Source of the DNA: an uncultured virus (IMG/VR IMGVR_UViG_3300025786_000100)
Lineage: Duplodnaviria > Heunggongvirae > Uroviricota > Caudoviricetes
DNA: 20,000 nucleotides
Virus record (IMG/VR): IMGVR_UViG_3300025786_000100
Reading direction: 5' to 3' (one strand)
The position numbers and the translations under genes were made by a program. Below the pieces are notes generated by a model, which ran no database searches, had not been told where the DNA came from, and saw only the letters and a program-made list of their open reading frames with translations. This document shows, piece by piece, positions 1,925 through 20,000 of the stretch (position 1 is its first letter; each line of letters opens with the position of its first letter).

Positions 1925-1945
1925 ATTTCCAAGTAGTTCGAATCG

Positions 1946-2172: not shown

Positions 2173-2179
2173 GGAATTC

Positions 2180-3319: not shown

Positions 3320-3355
3320 TGTGCTATTTTCGACAGAACCCAGCAGACATCCGGC

Positions 3356-5224
3356 TTAGATTGCCTGACTGGCGGCCGCGGCCGACGAGTCGCTCGCAAT
3401 CTGGCTGATGTCCCAAACCTCTTTGGTCAGATTGATGAGCAGCCCTTGACGCCTGTCAATGTTCGCAGCCGTCCATTCGGTGAAGGACTCCAACTTGCTG
3501 TTGATTCTCGTGATCGAGCTGTTGTTCCCAACGGAAGCCAGCCCGGCGATACTACTGGTAAGGTAATTCTTGCACTTGGCGTACTCGGCCTTTTTGAGTG
3601 CAAAGAAGTTGTTGCTGGCCACGATGTTAATCGGCTTTTCGAGTAGGGTCAAATTTCCCAGCTTGATCTTATACTCTTCGTACTCCGCTTTTGGGTTCTT
3701 CTCGGCGAAGTCAGCGCGCAGGTCCGGCTTGGGATTATTTGGCAGGATGTGTTCGATTTCGAGCACGGTATAGTCTCGAAGCGCGCCCGGTTCCCGAAGC
3801 CCCTTATAGGCCATATCGACATGCTGTGCCAACTTCGCAAGAAGATAGCGCGTCCGGTACTGCTGCATCGAATATAGCGTGTAGCGCTTCAGCGCATCGG
3901 ACAACTCTCCATCCTTCGCTGACATATTCTTTTTGAAGCGTTCCGCGATGAATGCATTAAGCTTGTCTGCTTGGGTCTGTGGATCAGGAATCCCCACGAT
4001 TGCCCGAAGCTCATCTGCCCAAGTCGAAAAATTCCTCTCCAGGTCTTTCGTCGGTGTCTTCGTGAAGATGTAGTAGAACAGGAAACTCTCGAGCTGCCGG
4101 ACGAGATGGTCGAATAGATGCTTGGGAAGGCTGCTGGCGGCCAGCAGGAGCACATAGTGCAGGCTGAAAGCTCCGCCGCAAAGCAATTTCAGACTACTCA
4201 TCGCGATGCTAGACTTCTTATCATTGCCCAGGCCATCAGAAAACGCGATGTAGTTTTCGACGTTCTGGATGACTTTGCGTACAAACTCGAATGGTTTCTC
4301 CGAGTAGTTGCAGAGTTTGGCATTTGCCTTGTTTACGAACCAGTTGTAAATCTCATCCTCGCGAACGACCGCGTCTCCCCGGGAGCTCTGGATCTTGTAA
4401 TTAGCCATCAAGAAATAGCGGAGGAAGCGGAGCGGCTTCTCTTTGTTGACCTCGAGGGGCTTGGTTATCTTCTTCCATTCATTCTTCAGGCGCGTAAACT
4501 CGTCCATCCGTACATGCGTGAAGAGCAGGTTCTTCAGAAGATCCATCGGGTTCAGCCCAACGCCTCGTTCATTTATGGTTTCAAAGATCTTCAGGGCGCT
4601 GCTGACATCCGTTGATATTTGGATGAAAACCACATTGTTGGCGAGATAACCCCAAAACTTCTTTAGCTTGGTCTTGTTGTCGTAGTTGTCGGAAAGATAT
4701 CTGCAAAGAGTGCCATAGGCGTTAACCAGATTTTCAAGGGAGCCAAAGCTCGTTATCCCCGCTCCCTGGATGCCGTTTCGAGTCGACAGGGGATCTGCGT
4801 TCAATTCGACAATCTTCGCCATAACGTCGCCGGCATTCTCATATCTGGGTTCTAGCTTGAGGGTTGTCTGCGTTTCACCGGTGCCAGAGGTGTAGCTAGT
4901 CGAGATCAGCCCGCTGATCGTCTGAACTTGGGGTTCTCCTTCAAAGAGATGCTTTAGCGCGCAGAGCAGGAGATAGAACGTGGTCAGACGTTGCTGGCCG
5001 TCAATGACGTCATAGTGGTTCTTCTGATCCCTGGGCGAAACGAGAACCGTGCCGACGAAATATTCGCGGCTTGTCCCCTCATCGATCTGCTCGTTAATGT
5101 CGTCGAGGAGCTGCTGAATTTCTGTATCCGTCCATACGTACTCGCGCTGGTAATCTGGAACAACATAGAAGCACTCACGGAATGCTTCTTCTACGCTGTA
5201 TTTGTGGTTTTCAATTTTTGCCAT
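3356..5224 (-). CDS. DUF262 + DUF1524 (HNH) protein, GmrSD/SspE-like modification-dependent nuclease
   Basis: VPDYQREYVW, IDGQQRLTT, FETINERG (DUF262); EIEHILP and LGNLTLL...N (DUF1524 HNH). Confidence 0.9.
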   Translation of the reverse strand: MAKIENHKYSVEEAFRECFYVVPDYQREYVWTDTEIQQLLDDINEQIDEGTSREYFVGTVLVSPRDQKNHYDVIDGQQRLTTFYLLLCALKHLFEGEPQVQTISGLISTSYTSGTGETQTTLKLEPRYENAGDVMAKIVELNADPLSTRNGIQGAGITSFGSLENLVNAYGTLCRYLSDNYDNKTKLKKFWGYLANNVVFIQISTDVSSALKIFETINERGVGLNPMDLLKNLLFTHVRMDEFTRLKNEWKKITKPLEVNKEKPLRFLRYFLMANYKIQSSRGDAVVREDEIYNWFVNKANAKLCNYSEKPFEFVRKVIQNVENYIAFSDGLGNDKKSSIAMSSLKLLCGGAFSLHYVLLLAASSLPKHLFDHLVRQLESFLFYYIFTKTPTKDLERNFSTWADELRAIVGIPDPQTQADKLNAFIAERFKKNMSAKDGELSDALKRYTLYSMQQYRTRYLLAKLAQHVDMAYKGLREPGALRDYTVLEIEHILPNNPKPDLRADFAEKNPKAEYEEYKIKLGNLTLLEKPINIVASNNFFALKKAEYAKCKNYLTSSIAGLASVGNNSSITRINSKLESFTEWTAANIDRRQGLLINLTKEVWDISQIASDSSAAAASQAI

Positions 5225-5271
5225 GGATGCCCTCTCCGCAGATCGTCCTCAGCGCCGACGGAATGCCGCGG

Positions 5272-5466
5272 TTACTTTGGTTGACAGAATGAGCACTCTT
5301 GAACAGGCAGGCCCGTCGTCGATGCATATGCCTTCGCGTCTGCCATAGAGTCGTGGTCCTTATATTCTCCCCGGCCCTCTCCGCCACGCTTGCGAAGCTG
5401 GTTGCAGTCTTGTCGATGAATGGCTACGTGCGGGTTATGACGATTTTCGTAAGTGGTGAATGCCAC
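5272..5466 (-). CDS. Small putative Zn-binding protein (HxxxC...CxxC)
   Basis: 64 aa; GGAGG SD 4 nt before GTG; motifs IHRQDC and ECSFCQP. Confidence 0.65.
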   Translation of the reverse strand: MAFTTYENRHNPHVAIHRQDCNQLRKRGGEGRGEYKDHDSMADAKAYASTTGLPVQECSFCQPK

Positions 5467-5486
5467 TATTCCTCCAGTCGGTCGTG

Positions 5487-5729
5487 CTATTCGGGTGAAA
5501 TGTCGGAGTCGAACATTTCCTTCGCCGCCTTGAAAATCGACTCCCCCACATAACGCATTTTATTCTTGGTCGCGCGAACAACGGGCTCGGTATCAATAAA
5601 TCGCTGATCTTTCGTTACGACCCCGTTTTTCCATCCGCGTATTGAAATCCACGGAATTCGTCTTCCATCTTCACCCCGCTTCACGTCTACCATTACGTTC
5701 ACTAAAATTGAGTACCGCTTCTTTGTCAT
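5487..5729 (-). CDS. Hypothetical protein
   Basis: 80 aa, ATG start, co-oriented and 20 bp upstream of the next ORF; no recognisable motif. Confidence 0.5.
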   Translation of the reverse strand: MTKKRYSILVNVMVDVKRGEDGRRIPWISIRGWKNGVVTKDQRFIDTEPVVRATKNKMRYVGESIFKAAKEMFDSDISPE

Positions 5730-5929
5730 GATTGCGCTCTCTGGGCGTGATTCTCCCTTATCGGGACCACGGATTTCACTATTCTAGAAATTTGAGCGAT
5801 GGCATCTTGAAGTGCTAAAATTAAGTGTCACCGTTAGTCGGTGGCTTCTGTATTTTGCCCCGGCCTGATCTAGGGCTAACAAAGTGCTAGAATAAATTTT
5901 TTTCGGGCAGGCGCTATTAGGATAGGGAT

Positions 5930-6229
5930 TTACGGAAGCACGTTCCGAGAAAGAAGAACGCGTTCATACTCGGCTTGATCCATTGGACACGCCAACAGAT
6001 CGCAAGCTTCTCTGAATGTCAGGTTCCCTAGCTGGCGAGTCATTTTCCGAATTAGATCAGCGCCGTAATCTCTATAGCCCGTGCCGGTTGAAATCTTTGT
6101 TCGCACTCGAGTGCGGCGTCCCTGATAAATGAAATAGTAAAAGCGATGATCCCGGGCGTCTTGCTCAAACCCCTTCGAAGCTAGAGACCTTTCGATAGTA
6201 TTACGCGGTATAGACCGCATCTTCGACAA
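5930..6229 (-). CDS. HicA-like mRNA interferase toxin (alternative start ATG 6220)
   Basis: Basic protein with pattern L..KGF.....DH.FY.....G.RT....S.G.......I..M..QL; overlaps the stop of the HicB-like gene. Confidence 0.7.
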   Translation of the reverse strand: MSKMRSIPRNTIERSLASKGFEQDARDHRFYYFIYQGRRTRVRTKISTGTGYRDYGADLIRKMTRQLGNLTFREACDLLACPMDQAEYERVLLSRNVLP

Positions 6230-6638
6230 AGCCTCGATACTGTTGCTTTAGGTCCAGCGCGCCTCTTGAGAGTTCATTGTCTGGAGTACGAGTATAGACG
6301 AAATAATCGTGCACAATAAATTCCACAAGGTCTTGTTTCGCTGCTTCGAGCGAGTCGCCATGACCAAATAGTTCCAGATCGGGAATTTCGACAAACCATT
6401 CAGCATCACTCCGCTGGACGTTCAACTGAAGCGCCTCTCTCAAATATAGACGGCCCTCCGCGCTGGAAATTTCTCCCCAGAGGTGATAAGGCTTTTCAAC
6501 CGCGATGGGGTGAACATCGGGCCTGATTTCTCCAATCAAGTCGCGATACTGCAAGGTGCGCGAATCTTCCTGAGGCTCGTTAGCGGAGACCCATTCGAGC
6601 GGTGCTTCCGGGGACACCAAAGTCGCGGTTGGAGACAT
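6201..6638 (-). CDS. HicB-like antitoxin with N-terminal extension and no evident C-terminal DNA-binding domain
   Basis: WFVEIPDLELFGHGDSLEAAKQDL is the HicB partial RNase H-fold signature. Confidence 0.72.
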   Translation of the reverse strand: MSPTATLVSPEAPLEWVSANEPQEDSRTLQYRDLIGEIRPDVHPIAVEKPYHLWGEISSAEGRLYLREALQLNVQRSDAEWFVEIPDLELFGHGDSLEAAKQDLVEFIVHDYFVYTRTPDNELSRGALDLKQQYRGFVEDAVYTA

Positions 6639-7343
6639 TTAGTTCCTCTGTTGGCGCATGACTTTTAGATAGTCGGCCGTTATCAGACTGGAGAAAACGC
6701 TCTTCGTGTGCTTATGTGATTCGTCTAAATAACCGGCAAGTTGCCTAAACTCAAGTCCGCCTTGTTTAATGTAGTCGAAGTCCAACAAAATAACATCCCC
6801 GCCAGTTTTGTCCTGGGCCTTGGCTAGTTCAACAGCAGTCTTAAGCCGACCTTCTCCCAGACGAGTGGTAATGGTGGACGCAAAATGATCGAGCTTCGCT
6901 GGTATTGCCTCCGGCGTCAAGTAGGCAAAGTTGAGATATTTCTCCAGAGGTACTAGTCCATCCTCTCTGAGGGCAGGGATATGATTAATGTATCGAAGCC
7001 CCGTTTGCTTCAGCTGGGTGAGTTGGCACATTTCGCCAAATTTTTCGAAAACGGCCAATGCCTTTTTCTTAAATTCCTCAAATCGAGCATAGTTATAAGT
7101 GTGAAAGGAGACCTTATTAATGCAGAAGTGGATGAGTTCCTTCCCATCAGCACTGGTCAAACGGTAAGGAATGAGATCCGGGTGCGAGGGCTCCTTTGAA
7201 ACCGCAACACCAAGCGTTGGATAATCCGTTTCGAAAGCCTCTTGAATAAGATGCTTTTGGCTGTCTACCAACAACTTGCCGTCAAACCGAATCTCGAATA
7301 CAGCCTCGACCAGAGGCGCATTCGGCAAATGCTCATCAATCAT
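6639..7343 (-). CDS. TIGR04255 family protein (function unknown)
   Basis: N-terminal LPNAPLVEAVFEIRF, central GLRYINHI, C-terminal LLDFD...H....F...IT; AGGAGG SD. Confidence 0.85.
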   Translation of the reverse strand: MIDEHLPNAPLVEAVFEIRFDGKLLVDSQKHLIQEAFETDYPTLGVAVSKEPSHPDLIPYRLTSADGKELIHFCINKVSFHTYNYARFEEFKKKALAVFEKFGEMCQLTQLKQTGLRYINHIPALREDGLVPLEKYLNFAYLTPEAIPAKLDHFASTITTRLGEGRLKTAVELAKAQDKTGGDVILLDFDYIKQGGLEFRQLAGYLDESHKHTKSVFSSLITADYLKVMRQQRN

Positions 7344-7470
7344 ATAGGGGCCCTCCTGGAGTGTAACAGACGCGCCGCATAACCGCCAGGAGCGGCTTCT
7401 TTCTAGGATTTATAGCAAAATTCTAAACTCCGTTCATTCTGACCTGCAGCCCCCTTTCACACGCCACCGT

Positions 7471-8505
7471 CTAGTCCGATATAGTGTCGCGGTATACTGC
7501 GCTGGATGCGCTCGGCAACCTCAACACCGCCTCCCGCAGGCTCGACGGCATGAGGTGGGCGTAAATCTGCGTCGTCTTGGGACTCGAATGCCCGAGCATC
7601 CGGCCGATGCGGAAAAGATCGACGCCGGCCATGGCGAGATGCGAGGCGAAGCTGTGGCGAAGCGCGTGCAGGCCTCCCTTGGCCACGCCTGACTTCTCGA
7701 GAAAGCGCGTGAAGGCCTTGCTCAGATGCCCGGGGGCCAGCGACGGGAGCAGAACCCTGTCGGTCTCGGCCGCGCCGTTCTTGAGCTCGCGAAGCACCTC
7801 CTCCAACGCCGGGTGCAGCTCGATCTCGCGGGCCTCGTAGTCCTTGGGCGTCCAGCCTTCCTTGGGCGTGATGCGAAGCTGACGCGAGCCGAAGTCTACG
7901 TCGCGCCACTGAAGGGCCAGCATCTCCCCGCGGCGCAGGCCGGCGTAGAAGCCGAGGTGGATGACGGTCCGCCAGAACGGGTCGGCCGCGGCGAGGAGCG
8001 TTTGGATCTCCTCGTGGGTGTAGAAAACGGGGCGCTTCTTGACTTCGGGGAGGCGCTTGACGCCGCGCAGGCTCGCGCAGGTGTAGCCCCACTCCTCGGC
8101 CTTATTCACGATGGCCTTTAGCAGCGAGAGCTCGCGGTTGATCGTCGCGGGCTTTCGGCCGAGCCTTTTTCGCAGGAGCTTGTAGCGCTCCAGGACCTCG
8201 GCGCGCAGGTGGGCGAGCTTCTCCAAGTGAAAGGCGCGGTTAAATTCCTGGAGGATGATCCGGTTGAGCTCCCAGGTCTTGGGCGCGACGCTGGCCTTGG
8301 CGTAGGTCATGTACTTCTTGGTGAAGTCGGCCCAGGAGATGTCCTTGCCGCCCGCTCCGCTTCCGCCCGAGCGCAGGTTCTTGATGATCTCGGCCAGCTT
8401 GATGCGGGCCACGTCCTTATCGGCCGAGAGCGAGCGCCAGATATGTTTCTTGCCCTCCCACCAGCAGCCGTACCAGCGGCTTCCCCGCTTAAGCAAGGTC
8501 GCCAT
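7471..8505 (-). CDS. int: Tyrosine recombinase / phage-type integrase 2
   Basis: AGLRRGE, TPKD, HALRHSFASHL, LGHSS...TQIYAHL. Confidence 0.95.
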   Translation of the reverse strand: MATLLKRGSRWYGCWWEGKKHIWRSLSADKDVARIKLAEIIKNLRSGGSGAGGKDISWADFTKKYMTYAKASVAPKTWELNRIILQEFNRAFHLEKLAHLRAEVLERYKLLRKRLGRKPATINRELSLLKAIVNKAEEWGYTCASLRGVKRLPEVKKRPVFYTHEEIQTLLAAADPFWRTVIHLGFYAGLRRGEMLALQWRDVDFGSRQLRITPKEGWTPKDYEAREIELHPALEEVLRELKNGAAETDRVLLPSLAPGHLSKAFTRFLEKSGVAKGGLHALRHSFASHLAMAGVDLFRIGRMLGHSSPKTTQIYAHLMPSSLREAVLRLPSASSAVYRDTISD

Positions 8506-8508
8506 CGT

Positions 8509-8703
8509 TTAGCTCCATGCGTCCTCGCGCCCGCGCAGCCAGCGCTCGATCTTGTCCGGGTTAAAACGAATCACCTGGGCCTCAATGTGCAGGGCGGGCA
8601 GCTTCCCAGCCCGCACCCATTTGCGCACCGTCTTAGGGGCGAGCTTAAGCAGCCGCGCCACCTCGGCCACGGTCAGAAGGTCCCTGCGCCCGGCCGCGCT
8701 CAT
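8509..8703 (-). CDS. Excisionase-family HTH_17 protein
   Basis: LLTVAEVARLLKLAPKTVRKWVRAGKLPA...IRF...IERWL; stop 3 nt before the int start; AGGAAGG SD. Confidence 0.88.
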   Translation of the reverse strand: MSAAGRRDLLTVAEVARLLKLAPKTVRKWVRAGKLPALHIEAQVIRFNPDKIERWLRGREDAWS

Positions 8704-8746
8704 GACGAGGTACCTTCCTTCCCGCCGGAAAGCAAGGCCTTTCTCG
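8703..8746 (-). promoter_or_regulatory. Second copy of the conserved integrase-module motif
   Basis: Minus strand reads CGAGAAAGGCCTTGCTTTCCGGCGGGAAGGAAGGTACCTCGTCA, compared with 713-757. Confidence 0.55.
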
Positions 8747-9144
8747 GCTCGCAGGCTCCGAGCCCGGTTCGAGGGCCGTTTTGCGCCCGTTCAGCGATTC
8801 GTTCATACGGGTTCCCCGTCGAGCGTTTTGAACAAACAAAAAATGTGTGAAACACCGCATGCGCCTTCAAAACGCGGCGCTGCCATGAGTGTGCGGGGTT
8901 TGGGGTCGAAAATTTGCGCTTTTTCCGGCGGGCCCGAAATCCAGAATTGTCGTTGCGAATCAAAAGGAAACCTAATGTGCGATTAGGTCCCCCTGACGAG
9001 GTCCCTCGTTCGCCCGTTCCGAGCCCATGCCACGCCGCGACCGGCCCCGCGACCCTGCTCCGGCAGGGGCAGGGGGGCACATTCAAGGCGGGGGCCGCGC
9101 TGGCTGGATTTGAGCTTCTCTGTTGCTTCTTTTGCCGGGAGCGT

Positions 9145-11667
9145 TCAGTCATCGCCCCTCCCGCGGTCGACCGCGTACCACTGACGCACGAGCGACTCGA
9201 CCGTCTTCTCGGCCTCCTCGCGCGAGAAGCCGTCCTCATGCTCGAAGGTTCCCGCCTTCTCTTCGAAGATGTCCTTGTAGTACTCGGGCCAATCCTCGAT
9301 ACGCTCGGGAAGCTCGGGAGGGAAAGACTTGGACCGGCTCGGACCGGGCAGACCGGCTTGTTCCGACCTTTCTCCTTCCGGCTCCTCTTCCTCCTCGAAA
9401 AGATCGATTCCAGGTGAACTAAAGTGGGCGGAACCCGGTCTTTCCGGTCCATCCCGGTCCGGCGCGTCCTCGGCCCAACCCAGGCCCAGCCAGACGCGCA
9501 GCTTCCTGCCGCCCTCGGCCACTTCCCGCCCCTCGCGGACGGCCAAGGTCTCCGAGAGGCGCTTGTTGAAGGTCTTCTGGCTGACGGGATGGGGCACGCC
9601 GATCTCGGCCGCCCAGGCCTTGTAAGCCTCGTAGGTCTCGGCCTTGGCCAGCGTATGCCCCTGCACCACGCGAAGCCGCTCCTCAATGAACTCGTAGACG
9701 TTGTCGCACTGCCGGCGGTACTTCTCGGTGGCGGCGCTGACGCTTGAAGATTCGGTAAAGCCCGCCTGGGCTTCCAGGCGTCTTAAGCCCGCCAGCGCGC
9801 GATTAAGCCACGCGCTTCTCGCCTCGGGCGTTACGAGCTTCGCGCTCAGCCCGCGATCGGCCTTCTGGCCTTCAAAGCGATTGGGAAAGGGGATGATCAG
9901 CCAGCGGCGGAAAAACCCCGGCGTCAGGTCGCGGCTCGGCGGCAACTCGTTGGCGCTAAAGAGCAGGCGGCTGTAGGGGCGCAGGTCGAAGGGGTGCTGG
10001 AACTTCCGCTCGGCCTTGATCATGTCGCCGGTGACGACGGCCTTGAACACGTCGCTTTTCTCAAGCGCCTTGGCCGGCAGGTCGGGGTAGATGTTGGCCA
10101 GCTTGCCCAGAAGCTCGGCCGCGGCGAAGCGGTTGTCGCTCATGTCCTGCAAGGCGACGTGACTGATGTTCTCGTATCCCAAGAGCGCCTCGACGGCGTT
10201 TAAGAAAGTGGACTTGCCGTTGGCCCCCGCACCCAAGAGCATGAAGGCCTTCTGATGGCGCGTGGTCGGGAGCAAGAGATAGCCCAACATCTCCTCGGCC
10301 AGGGGCAAAGCGTCTTCCGGGAAGACCTCGGGCAAGAAGCGCTCGACGACCGGGCAGCGCGCCTCGGGGGAGTAGGCGGCGTGGATGCGGAAGGTGGAAA
10401 GATAATTCTTCGAGTGAGGGCGCAGCTCCCCAGTGCGCCAATTGAGCATCCCGTTTTCGAGGTTGATCAAATCCAAGGCCCGGGGATCGAGCTCGCCTTG
10501 CTCCTTCTTGCCGGTTTCCTTTATGAGCGCGACCGTGGACTCCAGGCGGTCGGGCTTCGAGAGATAATCCAGCTTCTTATGCGCGATCGTCCGGGCGATG
10601 CTGGCGCCGTTTTGGAAGACGCCCCCTTCGTAGGTGAGAAGCCGCACCCCCTTTCCCGCATCGTCGATCGGGCTCGAAATAAACACGCGCGATCTCATGA
10701 TCTTGCGGCAAAGTTTGGCGGGAAGAAAATCCTTCTTGTTGAAAAACTCCGTGGGGTCCTCATCGGCGTCCTCGTCTTTTTCCGGGAGCAGCCCGCCGCT
10801 AAGCAGGCTCGCCAGCTTGTAGAGCGGCTTGGCCCCCGTCACCGCGGACGAGAGCGCTTCCTTAAATCCCTCGGCGTCTTTCTGGTGCAGCTCGTTGGCG
10901 TCCTTGGCCCCTTCCAACTGAACCGCGAAGGCCTCGCCGGTAAAGCCGATCTCGCGCAGGCGCTGGGCCAGCCCTTTGATCAAGGCTTCGCCGCCTTGGT
11001 CCGGCTCCTGGATCGCGTAGACTCGCGCGGCCTGGGCCACATGCTCCGCTTCAAGAACGCCCGTCATGTTCGCGCCCGGAAGCCCCAGCGCAGCGAAACC
11101 GTGATACCAGAGCGTCCAGCAGTCGGACTCGCCTTCGACGAGATAGAGCCGCTCGTCCTTGCCGTAGTCCTTGAGCCGCCACAGGCCGTAGGGAACCGGC
11201 CGCCCGCCGGCGCCCATCCAAATGCTCCCGTCCTTGGCCTTAAGCGCGCGGCGGAGGCGCTGGCGCGGGGCGAGCGCGCCGCCGATCAGCCGGTAGGTGA
11301 TCTTGACGACGTTGTTTTCGTAAATGTCGATCAGGTCGTAGACGCCCTGCTCTTTAAGGAACTCCTCGGGCAGCTTCTTGTCGGCCGCGAGTTCGACCAA
11401 GGTAAGGGTTTGGGGCTCTTTCTTCCGGGGAGCGCGCTTTTTCTGCGGGAAGAGATCGCGCATCGCAAGGCCCATCTCCGCTACAACGGTCTTGGTCTCG
11501 CAGCCGGCGAAGCACTTGATGAGTAGCTTCCCGTCCGTCGCCTGGCTGACCGAGAGGCTGCGCTTCTTGTCCTCGTGGGCCGGGCAGCGCGCAATCCAGC
11601 CCTTCTTGTTCTCCTTGACCTCTTTGAGGCGGGGCAGGAAGTCGTCTATAGGGTTGGTCTTGTTCAT
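9145..11667 (-). CDS. P4 alpha-like primase-helicase (CHC2 zinc finger, TOPRIM, D5/SF3 helicase, C-terminal winged helix); start at 11667, 11673 or 11685
   Basis: CPAHED...CFAGC, VEGESD, DQGGE, KDANEL, GAGANGKST (Walker A), LLFSANELP, FFRRWLIIPF; GGAG SD 9 nt before ATG 11667. Confidence 0.92.
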   Translation of the reverse strand: MNKTNPIDDFLPRLKEVKENKKGWIARCPAHEDKKRSLSVSQATDGKLLIKCFAGCETKTVVAEMGLAMRDLFPQKKRAPRKKEPQTLTLVELAADKKLPEEFLKEQGVYDLIDIYENNVVKITYRLIGGALAPRQRLRRALKAKDGSIWMGAGGRPVPYGLWRLKDYGKDERLYLVEGESDCWTLWYHGFAALGLPGANMTGVLEAEHVAQAARVYAIQEPDQGGEALIKGLAQRLREIGFTGEAFAVQLEGAKDANELHQKDAEGFKEALSSAVTGAKPLYKLASLLSGGLLPEKDEDADEDPTEFFNKKDFLPAKLCRKIMRSRVFISSPIDDAGKGVRLLTYEGGVFQNGASIARTIAHKKLDYLSKPDRLESTVALIKETGKKEQGELDPRALDLINLENGMLNWRTGELRPHSKNYLSTFRIHAAYSPEARCPVVERFLPEVFPEDALPLAEEMLGYLLLPTTRHQKAFMLLGAGANGKSTFLNAVEALLGYENISHVALQDMSDNRFAAAELLGKLANIYPDLPAKALEKSDVFKAVVTGDMIKAERKFQHPFDLRPYSRLLFSANELPPSRDLTPGFFRRWLIIPFPNRFEGQKADRGLSAKLVTPEARSAWLNRALAGLRRLEAQAGFTESSSVSAATEKYRRQCDNVYEFIEERLRVVQGHTLAKAETYEAYKAWAAEIGVPHPVSQKTFNKRLSETLAVREGREVAEGGRKLRVWLGLGWAEDAPDRDGPERPGSAHFSSPGIDLFEEEEEPEGERSEQAGLPGPSRSKSFPPELPERIEDWPEYYKDIFEEKAGTFEHEDGFSREEAEKTVESLVRQWYAVDRGRGDD
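9331..9460. repeat. Inverted arrays of GACCGG iterons, putative replication origin
   Basis: GACCGG at 9332, 9342 and 9351; CCGGTC at 9435, 9444 and 9454; about 10-bp spacing around a ~78-bp spacer. Confidence 0.65.
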
Positions 11668-11683
11668 CTTCATCCGCTCCAAC

Positions 11684-11746
11684 AAAAAAAGCGCCGCCGG
11701 CCCCCGCGGGGGCTTGGCAGCGCTTCGATTCCGCTCGACGGCGCTT
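11684..11746 (-). terminator. Terminator/antiterminator structured leader upstream of the primase
   Basis: Terminator AAGCGCUGCC-AA-GCCCCCGCGGGGGC-C-GGCGGCGCUU followed by a U tract; overlapping alternative hairpin AGCGC-CG-UCGA-GCGGAA-UCGA-A-GCGCU. Confidence 0.7.
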
Positions 11747-11751
11747 ACGGA

Positions 11752-11946
11752 CTAACGGCTCGAATTGTCCCGGACTTCGTCCGGCTTGAACGTCTGCGTC
11801 AACGTCACGAAAGAGATCTTCCCGCCTTGAATCTTGAACGTCCCGTCGCCAAAGAACCCGCTGTGGGCGACGCGTCCCAGAAAGTCGGCGAACTCGCCCA
11901 CGGACAAAAGGCCGCGCTGCGCATCGGCGACACGGCGCTCCCTCAC
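11752..11946 (-). CDS. Small protein, DUF2292/YezD-like
   Basis: FFGDGTFKIQGGKISFVTLTQTFK resembles the FG...i.iQ.Gki.......k pattern; GTGA overlap with the upstream gene. Confidence 0.55.
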   Translation of the reverse strand: MRERRVADAQRGLLSVGEFADFLGRVAHSGFFGDGTFKIQGGKISFVTLTQTFKPDEVRDNSSR

Positions 11947-12227
11947 GGCCTGGGCCTCTCGCGGCGCAGGCCATGAATGAGCGACTTTAAATCGACGATG
12001 GCGTTCTTGTAGGCCAGCGGATCAACGCCCGCCCGGTGGCCGTAGAAATCCTGGATGAGGGCCTCGCGCCTGGGCGAGTCCTCGAGCACGAAGAGCACGC
12101 GGCTTCCGCCGGCGGGATCTAAGCGCAGAAGCGGCAGCCCCTCGGCGATCAGGTAGGCGGCCAGGTAGAAATCGGAGAGCGCGTAGGACGCGGGCGCTTC
12201 GTCGTCGGTTTTCATGTTCTTCTTCAT
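11943..12227 (-). CDS. DUF5659-like small (winged-helix) protein
   Basis: SDFYLAAYLIAEG...RVLFVL...FY......VDPLAY......LKSLI pattern, typical of genes upstream of MGE primases. Confidence 0.65.
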   Translation of the reverse strand: MKKNMKTDDEAPASYALSDFYLAAYLIAEGLPLLRLDPAGGSRVLFVLEDSPRREALIQDFYGHRAGVDPLAYKNAIVDLKSLIHGLRRERPRP

Positions 12228-12259
12228 CTTCGCTCGGGCCTCGCGCCCGCTTCCACTCT

Positions 12260-12373
12260 ACTTTAACCTGCGCCGCCGCGGGAGTAAATGCACAGGTTAA
12301 CTTGTTGACAGCGTATCGGTAGTTTACGTGGCCGCTGGGTCCGGGTCCATGCACTGTTTAAACTGTGCACAGT
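12260..12373 (-). promoter_or_regulatory. Leftward promoter (TTTACT-17-TAAAGT) with repeated TGCACAGKTTAA-like operators
   Basis: -35 at 12288-12283 and -10 at 12265-12260; repeats at 12262-12273, 12289-12300 and 12350-12373. Confidence 0.5.
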
Positions 12374-12454
12374 CCGATCCGCCCTCACTTACTAAAGGGG
12401 GATCGAGAGGCCGAGACGGGGACGGGGATTTGCCGGAGAGGCCGAAGCGCAAGT

Positions 12455-12488
12455 TTTACAGGTCTATTAAATTTGCTTAAATTGCCTT
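12455..12488 (+). promoter_or_regulatory. Rightward promoter TTTACA-17-TAAATT, probably leaderless
   Basis: -35 at 12455-12460, -10 at 12478-12483, ATG 5 nt later, no SD. Confidence 0.55.
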
Positions 12489-12680
12489 ATGCGCCCACAA
12501 GATATTGTTAGTGCCCGAGACGCCTGCCAACTCCTGGGAATCAGCCGGCCGACTCTTTACTCCTGGATCGAGCAGGGCAAGCTCAAGCCTTGGGGCAAGG
12601 TCGGCGGCAACGAGGCCTGGATTTTCCTGCGAACGGAAGTTCTTAAAGCACACGGAACCAAGTACCAGAGGATCAAATAG
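12489..12680 (+). CDS. HTH_17/MerR-like DNA-binding regulator
   Basis: VSARDACQLLGISRPTLYSWIEQGKL...WIF...EV. Confidence 0.85.
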   Translation: MRPQDIVSARDACQLLGISRPTLYSWIEQGKLKPWGKVGGNEAWIFLRTEVLKAHGTKYQRIK

Positions 12681-12758
12681 CTCCCATGGCCAAGAAAGGA
12701 ATAATGCTCGCCGTGGAACACGGGATTTGGCGCGGTGAAACCGCGCAGGAGCACCGCC

Positions 12759-14210
12759 ATGTTTGAGCAGACTTTTAAGAACATCGATGACGTTTTGTGG
12801 AAGGAAGCAGGCTGCACGACGGAGCTCGATTACACCGAACAAACCTCGTGGATACTCTTCCTCAAGTATCTAGACGACCTTGAGCAGGAGCGCGCCACCG
12901 AAGCAGAGCTGGTCGGCAAGAAGTACAGCCACATCATCGACAAGGACTTCCGCTGGGCGAAATGGGCCGCCCCGAAAACGAAGGACGGTTCCTTCGACCA
13001 CGACAAGGCGCTTACCGGCGACGACCTCGTCGAGTTCGTCAACAAGAAGCTCTTCCCCTACCTCCAGGGCTTCAAGGAGCGCGCCTCGACCCCCGACACG
13101 ATCGAGTACAAGATCGGCGAGATCTTCGGCGAGATCAAAAACAAGTTCCAAAGCGGCTACAGCCTCCGGGACGCGCTCGAACTCATCGATGCGCTGCGCT
13201 TTCGCTCCCAAAAGGAGAAGCACGAGCTCTCGCACCTCTATGAGGCCAAGATCAAGAACATGGGCAACGCCGGCCGCAACGGCGGCGAGTACTACACGCC
13301 CAGGCCCTTGATTCGCGCGATGATCCAAGTCGTCAAGCCCAAGGTCGGTGAGACGATTTACGACGGGGCCTGCGGGTCCGCCGGATTCCTTTGTGAATCG
13401 CACGACTATCTGATGCGGAGCAAGCTCTCGACGAAGCAGCTCGCTCGGCTTCAGGACAAGACGTTTTACGGCAAGGAGAAGAAGAGTCTCGCCTATGTGA
13501 TCGCGATCATGAACATGATCCTTCACGGCATCGACGCGCCCAATATCATCCACACCAATACGCTCTCGGAGAATTTGGCCGACATCCAGGAGAAGGACCG
13601 CTACGACATCATCCTGGCCAATCCTCCTTTCGGGGGAAAGGAACGCAAGGAGGTTCAGCAGAACTTCCCGATCAAGACGAGCGAGACGGCGTTTTTGTTC
13701 CTTCAGCACTTCATCAAGATGCTCAAGGCGGGCGGCCGTGCGGCGGTGGTCATCAAGAACACCTTCTTGTCGAACTCGGACAACGCCTCAAAGGCGCTGC
13801 GCAAGGAACTCTTGGAATCCTCCAATCTCCACACGATCCTGGACTGTCCGGGAGGGACATTCCTCGGCGCCGGCGTCAAAACCGTCGTTCTCTTCTTTGA
13901 GAAGGGCTCCAAGACCCGGAAGATCTGGTACTACCAGCTTGAACCCGGTCGGAACCTCGGCAAAACAAACCCGCTAAACGATGATGATCTCTCCGAGTTC
14001 GTGAAGCTTCAGGCAAAGTCCGGCAAATCCAGCTCCTCATGGACGGTCGACGCCAAGGACATTGAGCAGGATAGCTTCGACCTATCGGTCAGGAATCCGA
14101 ACAAAAAGGAAGATATTGAGCTCCGCAGCCCGAAGGAGATCATTGCCGAGATTAAGCGACTCGATGAGGAGAGCGCAGAGATTCTCAAGAAGATTGAGGA
14201 ATTGGTTTGA
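12759..14210 (+). CDS. hsdM: Type I RM methyltransferase subunit (m6A)
   Basis: GEYYTPR, DGACGSAGFL (motif I), NPPF (motif IV); AGGAG SD before ATG 12759. Confidence 0.95.
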   Translation: MFEQTFKNIDDVLWKEAGCTTELDYTEQTSWILFLKYLDDLEQERATEAELVGKKYSHIIDKDFRWAKWAAPKTKDGSFDHDKALTGDDLVEFVNKKLFPYLQGFKERASTPDTIEYKIGEIFGEIKNKFQSGYSLRDALELIDALRFRSQKEKHELSHLYEAKIKNMGNAGRNGGEYYTPRPLIRAMIQVVKPKVGETIYDGACGSAGFLCESHDYLMRSKLSTKQLARLQDKTFYGKEKKSLAYVIAIMNMILHGIDAPNIIHTNTLSENLADIQEKDRYDIILANPPFGGKERKEVQQNFPIKTSETAFLFLQHFIKMLKAGGRAAVVIKNTFLSNSDNASKALRKELLESSNLHTILDCPGGTFLGAGVKTVVLFFEKGSKTRKIWYYQLEPGRNLGKTNPLNDDDLSEFVKLQAKSGKSSSSWTVDAKDIEQDSFDLSVRNPNKKEDIELRSPKEIIAEIKRLDEESAEILKKIEELV

Positions 14211-15409
14211 AGAACGGTTGGAAAAACCTCCCCCTCAAGGAGGTGTGTACGGTCTTCGCAGACGGAGATTGGATCGAAACCAAAGATCAGTCCCCATCTG
14301 GTATTCGTCTTATCCAGACCGGCAATGTTGGCGCGGGTCTTTTCAAAAACCGTGAAGGTAAGGCGCGGTTCATTTCTGAACAAACTTTCCGTCGTCTTAA
14401 ATGCACGGAAATCCTTCCGGGGGACTGTCTCGTGTCGCGCCTGCCGGACCCAGTCGGCCGCGCATGCCTTTTACCTAATATTGGCGAGAGAATGATCACT
14501 GCGGTCGATTGCACGATTGTTCGCCCAAAAAACAACATCCTTTTGCCGAAATTTTTGAATTACTATGCGTGCTCTTCAAAGTACCTTTCCGAGGTCGAAA
14601 AGAAGTGTACTGGAGCAACGAGAAAGCGCATTAGTCGGAAAAACCTTGGGCTTGTTCCAATCCCCATCCCCCCGCTCCCCGAACAAAAGCGAATCGTCGG
14701 GATCCTAGATAAAGCCTTTGCGGAGATTGATCGTTCGATAGCAAATAGTCAGTCAAGCCTAACTCAGATCAGCAAGCTCATCGCATCGGTGCTTGAACGA
14801 GAATTCCAAAAGGCTTTACAATTTGGATCCTCTCCTGTCGGCGAACTTGCAGACCACTGCCTGGGGAAAATGCTCGATAGGCGCAAGAACCAAGGAACCC
14901 CAAAGATGTACCTCAGGAATATTAATGTCCGCTGGTTCGAATTTGACCTCAGCGATCTTCTTGAAATGCGCTTTAAGGATGATGAATTCGATCGATACTC
15001 CGCCAAGAAAGGCGATGTTCTGGTTTGCGAGGGTGGATATCCTGGTCGATGCGCCATCTGGACTAGTGATGAACCCATCTATTTTCAAAAGGCCCTGCAT
15101 CGCGTCCGGTTCCATAACCCGCTCCATGCGAAATGGTTCATGTACTTCATGTTTTATTGCGATCAGGCGGGCCTCCTTCGACGGAAATTCACCGGCGCCG
15201 GCATACAGCACTTCACTGGTAAAGCCCTGAAGGTCTTCGAAGTGCCCATCATTGCAGACGATCAAATGAAACGCTCATTATCCTTGATCGAGGAACTCTT
15301 TACCGAATCTTCCAGGCTGATCGAGAGCCACGGACGGAAGATTCAAACGCATAATGAGCTCAAGCAAGCGTTCATGGAAGAGCATTTCTCAAAGGGCGCC
15401 GAATCGTGA
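14207..15409 (+). CDS. hsdS: Type I RM specificity subunit
   Basis: Two TRDs with conserved regions (IPIPPLPEQKRIVGILD; VPI...Q); 4-bp overlaps with hsdM and hsdR; visibly more AT-rich than the flanking genes. Confidence 0.93.
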   Translation: MKNGWKNLPLKEVCTVFADGDWIETKDQSPSGIRLIQTGNVGAGLFKNREGKARFISEQTFRRLKCTEILPGDCLVSRLPDPVGRACLLPNIGERMITAVDCTIVRPKNNILLPKFLNYYACSSKYLSEVEKKCTGATRKRISRKNLGLVPIPIPPLPEQKRIVGILDKAFAEIDRSIANSQSSLTQISKLIASVLEREFQKALQFGSSPVGELADHCLGKMLDRRKNQGTPKMYLRNINVRWFEFDLSDLLEMRFKDDEFDRYSAKKGDVLVCEGGYPGRCAIWTSDEPIYFQKALHRVRFHNPLHAKWFMYFMFYCDQAGLLRRKFTGAGIQHFTGKALKVFEVPIIADDQMKRSLSLIEELFTESSRLIESHGRKIQTHNELKQAFMEEHFSKGAES

Positions 15410-17760
15410 ACGAAGCCGAAACCCGCGCAGAACTAATCGACCCCGCCATCAAAGAGGCTGGCTGGGGCGCCGTCGATAGCTCTCGCGTAGGCCGCGAAGT
15501 CCCAATTACTCTCGGCCGCCTCCAAGGCGCAGGCCGACGCGCCAAGCCCGATATCGCCGACTACGTTCTCTACTTCAAGAACGAGAAGCTCGCCGTCATC
15601 GAGGCCAAGCGCCGCGACGCCGAACTGACCGAGGGCGCCACACAGGCCAAGAACTACGCCGACAAGCTTCATGCTCGCTTCGCCTATTCCACGAACGGCC
15701 GCGGCATTTACCGCATCGACATGCAAACCGGAAAGGAAGGCGAGATCGACCGCTATCCGACCCCGGAAGAACTCTGGAACGCCGCCTTTTCCGAGGCCAA
15801 CACGTGGCGCGACCGATTCGCGGCGATCCCCTTCGAAGATAAGGGCGGCTTCTGGAAATCTCGCTATTACCAGGACACCGCCGTCAGCAAGGTCCTAGAC
15901 GCTATCGCTCAAGGCAAGGACCGCGTCCTGTTGACGATGGCAACCGGCACCGGCAAAACCTTCGTCGCCTTCCAGATCGCCTGGAAGCTCTTCCAAAGCC
16001 GCTGGAATCTTTCCGACTGGAAATCCGGCGCGGAGCCATCCCGAAGGCCCCGCATCCTCTTCCTAGCCGACCGGAACATCCTGGCGGACCAGGCCTATAA
16101 CGCCTTCTCAGCGTTCCCGGAGGACGCTCTCGTCCGTATCGCGCCCGATGCCATCCGCAAGAAAGGCCGCGTTCCCACGAACGGCAGCATCTTCTTTACG
16201 ATCTTTCAGACCTTCATGTCCGGCCGCGACGCCGACGGGAACCCCTCGCCCAGCTTTGGCGGGTACTCGCCGGACTTTTTTGACTTCATCATCATCGATG
16301 AATGCCACCGGGGCGGGGCCAAGGATGAGAGCCGCTGGCGCGGCATCATGGACTACTTCAAACCCGCCGTCCAGCTCGGCCTGACCGCAACCCCGCTGCG
16401 CAGACACAACGCCGACACCTATGCCTACTTCGGCAAGCCCGTCTATGTCTACTCGCTTAAAGAGGGAATCAACGACGGCTTCCTGACCCCATTCAAGGTC
16501 CAGCAGATCGCCACGACCCTGGACGACTACACCTTTACGACCGATGACGAGTTGATCGAAGGCGAGGTCGAAGAAGGGGAACGCTTCGCCGCTTCGGATT
16601 TCAACATCACGATCGAGATCAAAGAACGCGAGAAGTACCGGGTCAAGCTGTTCATGGATCGGATCAACCAAAACGAGAAGACCCTGGTCTTCTGCGCGAA
16701 CCAAGCCCACGCGCTCTTGGTGCGCGACCTTGTCAACCAGGCCAAAACCAGCACGGACCCCAATTACTGCGTCCGCGTAACCGCCGATGAGGGCGAGAAC
16801 GGCGAGCGGCAGCTTCGCGCCTTCCAGGACAACGAGAAGACGATCCCGACCATCTTGACCACCTCTCAAAAGCTCTCCACCGGCGTCGATGCTCGCAACG
16901 TCCGCAATATCGTTCTCATGCGTTCGATCAAATCGATGATCGAGTTCAAGCAGATCATCGGTCGCGGCACGCGCCTCTTCGACGGCAAGGACTACTTCAC
17001 GATTTACGACTTTGAGAAGGCCTATGAGCACTTCAACGACCCCGACTGGGACGGCGAGCCCGCCGAACCGGAGCCGCCGAAGCCCCGCCCCCCAGGCGAG
17101 CCCAAACCTGAACCCGAACCGACCGGCGATCCCGAGCCGCGGCCCGAGAAGGTCCGCATCAGGCTCTCAGACGGCAAGGTGCGCTCGATCCAGCACATGA
17201 CGGCCACTAGCTTCTGGAGTCCGGACGGCAAGCCCATTTCGGCCAAGCAGTTCGTCGAACGGCTCTATGGCGATATTCCGGCGCTGTTTAAGGACGAAGA
17301 CGAGCTTCGCGCGATCTGGAGCAAGCCCGACACCCGCCGAAAGCTCCTAGAAGGCCTTGAGGAGAGGGGATATGGTCGCGAACAACTCGAAGAGGTGAGG
17401 AGGATCGTTAACGCCGAGAGGAGCGATCTTTTTGACGTGCTGGCCTATATCGCCTACGCGATGGCTCCCAAGAGTCGCGAAGAGCGTGTTATCGACCATC
17501 GCGACGAAATTTACGCCTCGTACGCCGACCCCAAGCAGCAGGAGTTCCTCGACTTTGTCCTCAACCACTACATCGACCAAGGCGATGAGGAGCTCAACGA
17601 GGAGAAGCTTCCCGATCTTTTGCAGCTCAAGTACGCCTCCATCCACGACGCCACCGAGAAACTCGGCGCCGCCTCACTCGTACGCGAAATGTTCGTCGGT
17701 TTTCAAAAGCACCTCTATTCGCCCGAACGGGCCCAGGACGACAAGTCCTCTCGGCCATGA
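15406..17760 (+). CDS. hsdR: Type I RM restriction subunit (EcoAI/EcoEI-like)
   Basis: NEAETR...ADY...IEAKR nuclease, MATGTGKT, DECH, LTATP, QIIGRGTR. Confidence 0.95.
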   Translation: MNEAETRAELIDPAIKEAGWGAVDSSRVGREVPITLGRLQGAGRRAKPDIADYVLYFKNEKLAVIEAKRRDAELTEGATQAKNYADKLHARFAYSTNGRGIYRIDMQTGKEGEIDRYPTPEELWNAAFSEANTWRDRFAAIPFEDKGGFWKSRYYQDTAVSKVLDAIAQGKDRVLLTMATGTGKTFVAFQIAWKLFQSRWNLSDWKSGAEPSRRPRILFLADRNILADQAYNAFSAFPEDALVRIAPDAIRKKGRVPTNGSIFFTIFQTFMSGRDADGNPSPSFGGYSPDFFDFIIIDECHRGGAKDESRWRGIMDYFKPAVQLGLTATPLRRHNADTYAYFGKPVYVYSLKEGINDGFLTPFKVQQIATTLDDYTFTTDDELIEGEVEEGERFAASDFNITIEIKEREKYRVKLFMDRINQNEKTLVFCANQAHALLVRDLVNQAKTSTDPNYCVRVTADEGENGERQLRAFQDNEKTIPTILTTSQKLSTGVDARNVRNIVLMRSIKSMIEFKQIIGRGTRLFDGKDYFTIYDFEKAYEHFNDPDWDGEPAEPEPPKPRPPGEPKPEPEPTGDPEPRPEKVRIRLSDGKVRSIQHMTATSFWSPDGKPISAKQFVERLYGDIPALFKDEDELRAIWSKPDTRRKLLEGLEERGYGREQLEEVRRIVNAERSDLFDVLAYIAYAMAPKSREERVIDHRDEIYASYADPKQQEFLDFVLNHYIDQGDEELNEEKLPDLLQLKYASIHDATEKLGAASLVREMFVGFQKHLYSPERAQDDKSSRP

Positions 17761-17859
17761 ACTACGACGTCCCCATCTTCGACCCGATACATGCGCGATC
17801 CGAGGGAAACTTCTTCCCCGGCAATTCGCGCACGAAACGCCTCGTGCTGATACAACAGA

Positions 17860-18594
17860 ATGGATAAGAAGAAGGTCCTCGCCGACCACAAGCAAATCGG
17901 CAAGAAGTATATCCCGCCTATGGCCCAGCTTGGATTTTCCGAGATTCTCTGGACGGACAAGCTCGTCCCGGAACTCCTCTGGCTCGGACTTCTAAATGAT
18001 GCCCACGGACTTCAAGCCGGCGCAGATCTCGCCATCAGCCTCGCCAAGGCTGCGACCAAAACGTGGAAGAACGGCCATAAGAAGCTTTTCGCTTCCACCA
18101 GTTCTTTTTCAGCTCTCGACGACGGTCAACGGACCCTAATCGCTGCTGACTTAAAATCGTCCGATAAGCTCAATCCTATTCGGTCGGCCATTAAACCCCT
18201 GGCAGCGCTATATCCCAAGTGCCCACTCGGCTTTCTATTTGACGATGTTCCTGAGTTCGGGGAGGGCACCCATATAATGGACAGCTTTAAAGCTTCACTC
18301 GATCGCATGTTCTATCGTTGGGAAAAACCGGCAACGATGGCCCAGGCGAATGCCGTTTACATCGCGTTCGTGACGGATATTTTGAAGGTACGTAAGGGGC
18401 TATCGCTCGCCAATTTCCCGGCGATCGAGAAATTTCCGGATACCGAAGAGTCGAAACGCGTCGCGAGTGGAGTGCGATGCGCAGTGAGCATGTTCTTTTC
18501 TCCGCCCCACTACGACGATTCCTCTTCATGGCCGGCATACTTTTGGGATCGAGGCTTCAAAATCGAGCCTTGCATCCTTGAGAATCTCTCGTGA
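17860..18594 (+). CDS. Hypothetical protein, translationally coupled to the DUF5677-like gene
   Basis: 244 aa; conserved-looking N-terminus HKQIGKKYIPP...W...VPELLW; GTGA overlap at 18591-18594. Confidence 0.75.
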   Translation: MDKKKVLADHKQIGKKYIPPMAQLGFSEILWTDKLVPELLWLGLLNDAHGLQAGADLAISLAKAATKTWKNGHKKLFASTSSFSALDDGQRTLIAADLKSSDKLNPIRSAIKPLAALYPKCPLGFLFDDVPEFGEGTHIMDSFKASLDRMFYRWEKPATMAQANAVYIAFVTDILKVRKGLSLANFPAIEKFPDTEESKRVASGVRCAVSMFFSPPHYDDSSSWPAYFWDRGFKIEPCILENLS

Positions 18595-19421: not shown

Positions 19422-19490
19422 GCTGGTTGATGCCATGGGTACAATTTGTGGTCTTGCTAACTGGACTTATGGAGATGAGGAGGCATTCTC

Positions 19491-20000
19491 ATGCCGGATT
19501 TGATCGGAAAACAGAAAATCCAACTGGCGGCGGAGCGCGTTGGAAAGTATAAGGCACACCTTATCACGCTGAGAGGAAAGCTATTCACTGAATTCGGTGA
19601 GATCGAAGTTCCAGAGAAGCTCGCGGACGCCATCGACGGCGCAAGCGCACTACATGAGCACCTGCTTAAAGCCGGGGGGCATGTCGTGCTTGATGACGCA
19701 TCGACCGTTGTCTATATCGCAGCGCTTCGATGGCAAATCCTTCAGCTAGACTCTCAAATCTCCGAGAAACGCAACCGCGGAGCCTCTGAAGAAATGGTCC
19801 GCCCTTTGGCCGATAAGAAGAAGGAACTCGAGGCGGTGCTGGGTCAGAGCGCTTACGCGAAGTACAAAGACGTGACGCCTCTCCTTGAAGATTCCTATCT
19901 AAAACCGCGTCCCGACCTGAAAGCTGCCGTCGGCGTCCGTGCCCCGGAGTCAGGAAATTGCTTCGTCGTAATAGCATCCGATAAGGAGGAAGGGCAAACC
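19491..20000 (+). CDS. Hypothetical protein, truncated at window edge
   Basis: Not in the ORF track; GAGGAGG SD, ATG 19491, open to the edge (MPDLIGKQKIQLAAERV...ESGNCFVVIASDKEEGQT). Confidence 0.7.
   Translation, partial: MPDLIGKQKIQLAAERVGKYKAHLITLRGKLFTEFGEIEVPEKLADAIDGASALHEHLLKAGGHVVLDDASTVVYIAALRWQILQLDSQISEKRNRGASEEMVRPLADKKKELEAVLGQSAYAKYKDVTPLLEDSYLKPRPDLKAAVGVRAPESGNCFVVIASDKEEGQT

Follow-up and report, generated by a model that had tools for sequence, protein, structure and literature searches.

We identified a conserved, putatively regulatory RNA unit in a 20,000-nucleotide (nt) stretch of DNA from an uncultured virus of the class Caudoviricetes (IMG/VR record IMGVR_UViG_3300025786_000100; the whole stretch is hereafter called the window). 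The unit, ~65 nt long (11745-11681, minus strand), is located between a gene for a 64-amino acid (aa) protein and a primase-helicase gene, and consists of an intrinsic terminator and a bulged hairpin that overlaps the terminator 5' arm. Both structures are conserved in related copies, the upper stem of the hairpin and the lower stem of the terminator covary, and the unit is associated with homologs of the same small gene. We propose, with a probability of roughly 0.45, that transcription terminates here by default and reads through when a trans-acting factor stabilizes the overlapping hairpin.

A hairpin overlapping an intrinsic terminator

The terminator hairpin (11689-11725, minus strand) has a predicted stability of -29.3 kcal/mol when folded alone (ViennaRNA). 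Its 10-bp lower stem is formed by AAGCGCUGCC (11725-11716) and GGCGGCGCUU (11698-11689), and its 5-bp apex by GCCCC-CGCG-GGGGC (11713-11700). The U tract UUUUUUUGUU (11681-11690), with seven U residues at 11690-11684, comes next and is followed directly by the Shine-Dalgarno (SD) sequence of the primase gene. This arrangement has the features of an intrinsic terminator, i.e., a G+C-rich stem, a U tract directly after it and a sense orientation behind a gene. The site, which has an interrupted stem, was missed by a simple consensus terminator scan.

The second structure, hairpin b (11719-11745, minus strand; -10.8 kcal/mol, ViennaRNA), is a bulged hairpin of 26-27 nt and a candidate antiterminator. 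Its GCGC (11744-11741) begins 7 nt past the stop codon of the small open reading frame (ORF). In the lower stem AGCGC (11745-11741) pairs with GCGCU (11723-11719), whereas the upper stem is made of UCGA (11738-11735) and UCGA (11728-11725) and closes a GCGGAA loop (11734-11729); CG on the 5' side and A 11724 on the 3' side are bulged. Hairpin b shares 5 nt (11723-11719) with the 5' arm of the terminator, so that the two hairpins would be mutually exclusive. The nascent RNA up to 11700, which does not yet contain the 3' arm, was predicted to fold into hairpin b plus the apex hairpin (-22.0 kcal/mol). The 101-nt region as a whole had a minimum free energy of -46.7 (z score -2.57), and 4 of 200 shuffles were as stable.

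Both hairpins had been described in the original prediction, which was made from the DNA letters alone and whose quoted bases, coordinates, pairings and placement of the SD sequence all proved exact on the minus strand. A three-way junction had also been suggested. Such a fold is possible in the window (-33.8 kcal/mol) but is not conserved past the GCGC core: in the alignments described below, its extension pairs failed in 16 and 7 of 61 distinct copies, and in 6 and 1 of 25 in the protein-anchored set.

Collection of copies of the unit

We used window positions 12300-11600 as a DNA query against 61 genomes (60 relatives and the window's own). Matches in three genomes (G017, G018 and G032) were confined to query positions 552-634, which correspond to window 11749-11667, at 80-88% identity; the window's own genome contained a second copy with a match inside the same interval, and two weaker matches were located in other parts of the query. 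The ORFs upstream of the DNA-matched copies were remote homologs of the 64-aa protein. Further loci were gathered through the small protein alone and are therefore unbiased with respect to the RNA. A hidden Markov model of 14 small-protein sequences detected the family in 8 of 101 genomes of the order, 24 of 401 in a phylum sample and 20 of 393 in the whole class. The unit was present after the small-ORF stop in 27 of 37 protein-found loci examined, at a distance of 4-17 nt in 26 of them and 128 nt in one (L163). In one more locus (L157) a tandem repeat separates it from the stop by ~350 nt; at L157/L254 (G522:C388), this insertion between the small ORF and the unit consists of GGCAAGGCGAGGCA-like repeats. 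The remaining loci comprised 7 distant ones with an AlpA-type gene behind the small ORF and 2 weak or truncated matches.

A covariance model (R1) was built from the first 27 copies and searched against 151 genomes of the class, with matches of at least 41.9 bits taken as strong. We found 36 strong places in 17 genomes, including 12 in G358 and 5 in G381. A small ORF was located upstream at 25 of these places (directly at 23, at 128 nt in L163 and at ~350 nt in L157/L254) and was absent from the other 11. The small protein was encoded in 16 of the 17 genomes with strong R1 matches, compared to 20/393 in the whole class. A DNA pattern search yielded strong R1 matches at all 9 viral loci and at 35 of 65 metagenome loci, and in 39 of these 44 elements the small ORF was directly upstream; the other 5 were metagenome copies. 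A first DNA pattern scan of genome contigs gave 119 loci, mostly coding-sequence noise, with the small protein upstream only at L052. The large alignment contained 63 copies (61 distinct): 27 protein-anchored, 13 found in genomes by R1 and 23 of the 44 pattern-found. The 21 pattern-found copies that were left out were mostly exact or near duplicates.

Conservation and covariation

Pairing reached 99.4% over the upper hairpin stem and the terminator lower stem in the 27 protein-anchored copies (25 distinct); 6 of 13 pairs changed on both sides, and none of 500 shuffles matched the covariation score. The 63-copy alignment, in which 7 of 13 pairs changed on both sides, gave the same picture with more variation. 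Among the 61 distinct copies, the upper stem was 99.2% paired, with compensatory changes in 3 of 4 pairs, and the terminator lower stem was 99.5% paired, with 4 of 9 pairs varying on both sides; the terminator stem is thus kept by compensatory changes. The upper-stem variants included UCGA:UCGA, UCGG:CCGA, UUGG:CCAA, UUGA:UCAA, UCAA:UUGA, UCAG:CUGA and CAG:CUG, and a G.U variant, UCGG:CUGA, was also present. The U tract was kept in all aligned copies. The loop (4-6 nt) and the bulges varied freely, conservation being confined to the stems. A CsrA-like GGA loop and a lambda boxB-like GAAAA loop, judged by eye, were dismissed on this account. Mean energies over the 61 copies were -10.7 kcal/mol for hairpin b and -28.5 kcal/mol for the terminator.

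The lower stem of hairpin b behaved differently. Terminator pairs that share its bases were nearly invariant (alignment columns 25-90, GC in 61/61; 26-89, CG in 61/61; 27-88, GC in 60/61), while flanking terminator pairs varied freely (e.g., 24-91 was GC in 29 copies, AU in 26 and GU in 6). The upstream GCGY was as conserved as this terminator core, and its changes preserved pairing with the 5' arm. The core pairs of the lower stem could form in 59/61, 58/58, 58/58 and 61/61 copies (236 of 238 cells); the changes were 19 one-sided wobble changes, one double change from G-C to A-U (L275) and 2 violations. In the protein-anchored copies the stem (GCGC:GCGC) was always pairable, with one-sided, wobble-compatible changes only. 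Pairing of the upstream bases with the 3' arm instead produced 7 core violations (compared to 2) and 16 + 7 in the extension. These patterns suggest that the lower hairpin stem likely forms and competes with the terminator.

No Rfam match was detected at E<=1 in window 7000-13000. In 8 related loci the elements were likewise unmatched by Rfam, and two weak matches fell off the elements. An analogy drawn earlier with the CI/C4 RNA of satellite P4 was therefore unsupported.

The small protein family

The 64-aa protein (11752-11946, minus strand) starts with GTG and ends with TAG at 11754-11752. The stop is followed by TCC (TAG TCC, 11750-11754) in the window, whereas the assembly copy L001 (G000:C124), whose small protein is a 98% match, has TAA GCC. 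Metagenome contigs contained either variant (L222 and L233 versus L171 and L196). Only 3 close relatives of the protein were found by word search, and 9 matches at E<=0.001 were found among 1.84 billion representatives.

The protein had been described as DUF2292/YezD-like (PF10055). For the family as a whole a remote kinship was confirmed: one member, P0009, reached 22.1 bits (E 1.2e-4; gathering cut-off 22), and 19 of 51 aligned members matched PF10055 at E<=1 (best 1.2e-6). By profile comparison the family is a distant relative of DUF2292/YezD. The window's own protein had no Pfam match, with no hit to PF10055 even at E<=10, and there was no PF10055 match in the window's genome; among the control genomes this domain occurred only in Bacillus subtilis.

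An AlphaFold2 model based on the 51-sequence alignment had a mean predicted local distance difference test (pLDDT) score of 82.6, with two helices followed by a beta-hairpin and a third helix. Conserved basic residues are found where helix 2 ends and in strand 2; overall, the family is only mildly basic. A sequence search of PDB found nothing below E 0.02, Foldseek against PDB found nothing at E<=1, and the best score in a wide VIA-align comparison was Z 2.6, so that no solved structure in these comparisons resembled the small protein. Atlas structural neighbors were mostly viral clusters, and one was a YezD cluster (template modeling score 0.58), which we regard as a lead only. In the searchable literature, the accessible text gave DUF2292 a passing mention only, and that on oscA and YezD held nothing relevant.

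Genes downstream of the unit

The unit had been viewed as a switch specific for the primase-helicase, a view that the other copies contradict. In most loci it is followed by a prohead protease S78 gene and then an HK97-type capsid gene. For example, in the provirus record G535 the small ORF and the unit head a morphogenesis operon (protease, major head, adaptor, neck and tail). D5-type or CHC2 primases are downstream in the window, L155, L159 and L185, Prim-Pol in L147 and L251, and a tail-tube gene in L268 and L200.

Another group of copies is associated with class-III-cyclase-like genes of ~232 aa, which are dispersed (L269-L276 and L253, in G358, G381 and G436) as single genes with their own promoter and the same leader. 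These genes adjoin unrelated housekeeping genes, and G358 has at least 5 of them. L271 matches PF00211, L269 has no Pfam match, and L275a looks disrupted. Cyclase-type copies have no ORF upstream. They are located 10-20 nt behind the -10 box of unrelated promoters and immediately ahead of the SD sequence, which identifies them as 5' leaders. Since the 11 genome copies without a small ORF follow unrelated promoters or ORFs, the RNA itself, rather than a promoter element, is the conserved determinant.

Putative promoters and signals shared with a prophage

Upstream of the operon in the window, we found two putative promoters, predicted from sequence motifs. Motif 1 consists of an inverted repeat, CACAGTTTAAACAGTG (12352-12367, minus strand), a -35-like TGGACC (12349-12344), a 17-nt spacer and a -10-like TAAACT (12326-12321); it was not listed by a consensus promoter scan. 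Motif 2 consists of the inverted repeat GTCAACAAGTTAACCTGTG (12291-12309, minus strand), a -35-like TTTACT (12288-12283), a 17-nt spacer and a -10-like TAAAGT (12265-12260). A ACAGTTTAAACTGT-like inverted repeat that abuts a -35-like TGGACA is also conserved in the upstream regions of L009-L016 and L136-L163. In protease-type loci, this repeat, TGGAC and a -10 box precede the small ORF in the arrangement seen in motif 1; the spacer is also 17 nt, and the -10 box ends 6-8 nt ahead of the small-ORF ATG. Because of this short distance, the small protein of the protease-type loci is probably made from a leaderless mRNA.

Over 23 nt, motif 2 does not differ from its counterpart at the prophage copy L016 in the same genome. 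The hairpins of the window and L016 are also identical, over 30 nt, and their small proteins are only 25% identical. On one 90-kb metagenome contig, the two units are located 36 kb apart. In our interpretation, the window contains an integrative element with control signals in common with a resident prophage. Given the shared hairpin and promoter repeat, the replication gene of this element is probably switched together with the late genes of the prophage.

Proposed mechanism and alternative explanations

In the default state of the proposed switch, the terminator would form, transcripts from the promoter region (12370-12260) would stop after the DUF5659 gene (the first gene of the operon) and the small gene, and the primase-helicase would remain untranscribed. 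Read-through would occur when a trans-acting factor holds the weak hairpin b (approximately -11 kcal/mol) against the terminator (approximately -29 kcal/mol). Given that hairpin b is by far the less stable structure and that the upper terminator stem can nucleate freely, such a factor would probably be required. By its position and co-occurrence with the unit, the ~60-aa DUF2292-like protein encoded just upstream may be this factor, an assignment that we make tentatively and at somewhat less than even odds. The small protein would then provide a feed-forward delay. A positive-feedback loop, as originally envisaged, fails since the small gene precedes the terminator and its own transcription cannot be increased by read-through. 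The same unit heads the late (protease-capsid-tail) operon of the resident prophage.

Several observations weigh against this reading. In the window sequence by itself, the alternative hairpin is not beyond chance: when the 26 nt upstream of the terminator were shuffled by mononucleotides, a hairpin at least as stable as -10.8 kcal/mol and occupying 5 nt or more of the 5' arm arose in 497 of 2000 shuffles, and it is the comparison with related copies that makes the hairpin more than chance. The lower stem is nearly free of compensatory change (1 cell), and a palindromic GCGC can pair with either arm. The invariance of the cores is also inflated in the large alignment, as the pattern behind 23 copies fixed GCGY/GCGC and R1, which found 13 more, favors them. 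With regard to the small protein, no structural relative in the Foldseek/PDB and VIA-align comparisons pointed to RNA binding, and the protein is not markedly basic (family median pI 8.1, median net charge +1). The small gene is missing from the 11 genome copies mentioned above (9 at class-III-cyclase-like loci, one before a tail-tube gene and one before a primase gene) and from 4 metagenome loci in which the unit directly follows a DUF5659 gene; G436, an 85% complete genome, has the unit and no small-protein match. Distant family members, from more remote genomes of the phylum (L143-L145, L148-L150 and L154), lack the unit and have an AlpA/HTH_17 gene within a few bases instead. Finally, identical hairpins in the window and the prophage, accompanied by small proteins that are only 25% identical, fit one shared factor better than a protein dedicated to its own hairpin.

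This last point, together with the loci that lack or have lost the small gene, would also be expected if the switch were real and its factor another phage or host protein (HTH_17/AlpA-type, Q-type or RNA-binding), with the small protein acting elsewhere, e.g., at the promoter inverted repeat. Two HTH_17 genes flank the operon, AlpA-type genes directly follow distant relatives of the small gene, a conserved inverted repeat overlaps the -35 region in both the window and prophage copies, and AlpA is a documented antiterminator with which RNA polymerase bypasses an intrinsic terminator, as described in the accessible parts of two reports (PMC7969949, PMC9371919). However, AlpA-type loading needs a promoter DNA site and cyclase-type copies share only the RNA unit behind unrelated promoters, and a processive mechanism leaves a conserved hairpin overlapping the terminator arm unexplained; we consider this possibility unlikely. 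A factor-independent, leaky terminator, which would set a fixed low ratio of downstream to upstream expression or stabilize mRNA 3' ends, with the hairpin tuning efficiency or blocking RNases, appears decidedly unlikely. It would agree with a canonical and strong terminator, with a hairpin ~18 kcal/mol weaker in all 61 copies and with the appearance of such hairpins in 25% of shuffles. What it does not explain is the near-invariance of GCGY and the overlapped bases while other stem parts covary, nor the use of the unit as a 5' leader right behind single-gene promoters.

Three further explanations received little weight. The location of 9 of the 11 small-ORF-less genome copies in 5' leaders at class-III-cyclase-like loci might indicate a small terminator-embedded riboswitch for a metabolite, perhaps a cyclic nucleotide, and terminator-embedded mini-aptamers do exist (the hydroxymethylpyrimidine pyrophosphate, HMP-PP, class); the copies contain no conserved unpaired nucleotides, which makes this very improbable. 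Still less probable is that a dimeric repressor or activator binds the 26-nt imperfect palindrome as a DNA operator. The palindrome's outer half-sites (AGCGC...GCGCT) are conserved, and the palindrome is situated 10-20 nt downstream of the -10 box in cyclase-type loci, but its inner stem alters sequence while keeping complementarity, including a G.U variant, it follows a 180-nt ORF rather than a promoter in phage loci, and it is always fused to a sense-oriented terminator. The least probable is ribosome-mediated attenuation, in which a ribosome terminating on the small ORF would mask the 5' half of the hairpin and favor termination. The short and fairly constant distance from stop codon to GCGC (4-17 nt in 26 loci) suggested this model, which is at odds with distances of 128 nt (L163) and ~350 nt (L157/L254). 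As a general mechanism it was ruled out by the 11 genome and 5 metagenome copies without the small ORF, several of which are 5' leaders without any upstream ORF.

If a factor-stabilized hairpin does control read-through, the unit would be an RNA family absent from Rfam 15, and the DUF2292-like family would gain a first testable function. The unit would also show how phages of a little-studied, uncultured bacterial group gate their late genes, and points to control signals common to a prophage, a neighboring integrative element and host cyclase genes. A broader and more speculative view, which we place on the unlikely side, is that DUF2292-like mini-proteins are an unrecognized class of hairpin-binding antiterminators that act as a timer for late genes of temperate phages of this bacterial class, with the element copying phage signals and the host cyclase leaders being switched by the phage antiterminator. 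If so, an integrative element with its own primase would copy a phage hairpin and promoter repeat and replicate when the phage goes late, and dispersed host cyclase genes turned on by a phage antiterminator would constitute an infection-triggered signal.

Gene neighborhood in the window

The operon containing the unit begins with a gene for a 94-aa DUF5659 protein (11943-12227, minus strand; PF18903, E 1.2e-7), whose stop is joined to the GTG start of the small ORF by a GTGA overlap. DUF5659 homologs elsewhere precede, or are fused to, primases. In L251 (G048:C60), the DUF5659 domain is fused N-terminally to a Prim-Pol/D5_N primase behind the same leader, which ties DUF5659 functionally to primases.

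The primase-helicase gene (9145-11680, minus strand, including the SD sequence GGAG at 11680-11677) starts with ATG at 11673 or 11667 and has its stop at 9145. Its product matches DUF5906, D5_N, Pox_D5 and, weakly, the CHC2 zinc ribbon in Pfam, and is a DNA primase in PHROG (E 6e-93). A 328-aa frame (8700-9686) overlaps this gene. Behind it, a gap of ~440 nt (8703-9145) without a convincing ORF extends to an HTH_17 gene (8703-8509, minus strand), and a tyrosine integrase gene (8505-7471, minus strand) ends the genes transcribed in this direction. Divergent from the operon is a second HTH_17 gene (AlpA/excisionase-type; 12489-12680, plus strand; PF12728, E 5e-12), a possible regulator of the shared promoter region, followed by the type I restriction-modification genes hsdM/S/R (12735-17760, plus strand).

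Defense-type cargo surrounds the element (2180-7343 and 12735-19421), including GmrSD (3356-5224), the type I restriction-modification system and DUF5677 (18591-19421). The G+C content falls to ~0.50 across 4001-7000. One assembly contig (C124) covers only window 1830-19665, at the very start of which is a tRNA-Gly gene (1851-1924); positions 1-1829 and 19666-20000 fall off this contig. An integrase-like ORF (780-1871) may be an artefact because it crosses a join.

Comparison with known systems

The closest parallel in logic is the ribonucleic antiterminator (RAT) recognized by BglG, LicT and SacY. As described in the accessible text of three papers (PMC12591593, PMC3575810, PMC5393181), it is an imperfect palindromic hairpin of ~30 nt that overlaps the terminator 5' arm and loses unless held by protein. 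The same overlap is found here, but the hairpin sequence is different and the candidate protein is a 60-aa DUF2292-like protein; no CAT_RBD or PRD domain, which characterize the RAT-binding proteins, was found by Pfam among 20 scanned window ORFs. RAT targets are sugar operons, whereas the unit here precedes phage and mobile-element genes, and the word "phage" is absent from the main text, as available, of an antitermination review (PMC12591593). Gene order resembles that in the hut operon from Bacillus subtilis, in which, according to the available text of the same review (PMC12591593), hutP is the first gene and is followed by a terminator and the regulated genes (hutH), with HutP binding the terminator RNA. 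Here, too, the order is (candidate) regulator gene, terminator and regulated genes. However, HutP acts as a hexamer that is activated by a ligand and recognizes NAG repeats, whereas the unit has a bulged hairpin with no ligand indicated, and no Pfam match to HutP was found in the window's small protein or its family.

Lambda Q/tR' and AlpA provide another comparison. As in this type of late-operon control, a terminator right behind the late promoter would gate a prophage morphogenesis operon here, and AlpA-type genes (for AlpA, see PMC7969949, PMC9371919) occur nearby. HTH_17 genes, a downstream terminator and a promoter inverted repeat are all present in the window, binding of an HTH_17 protein to the repeat being only putative. 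Q and AlpA load at promoter DNA sites and act processively, in contrast to the conserved RNA described here, which overlaps one terminator and occurs behind unrelated promoters. ANTAR proteins target two small hairpins in tandem, each with a hexaloop that has A at position 1 and G at position 4; here there is a single small hairpin with a variable loop of 4-6 nt, and a Pfam scan of the window detected no ANTAR domain.

In satellite P4, CI RNA controls the alpha (primase) operon. The present unit differs in that no C4/CI-like RNA (Rfam, E<=1) and no antisense seqA/seqC logic were found, the shared signal being the hairpin-terminator unit itself. What the two have in common is premature termination, established for P4 and proposed here, as the gate of an integrative element's primase operon, and control signals that a resident prophage also uses, which here are an identical hairpin and promoter repeat.

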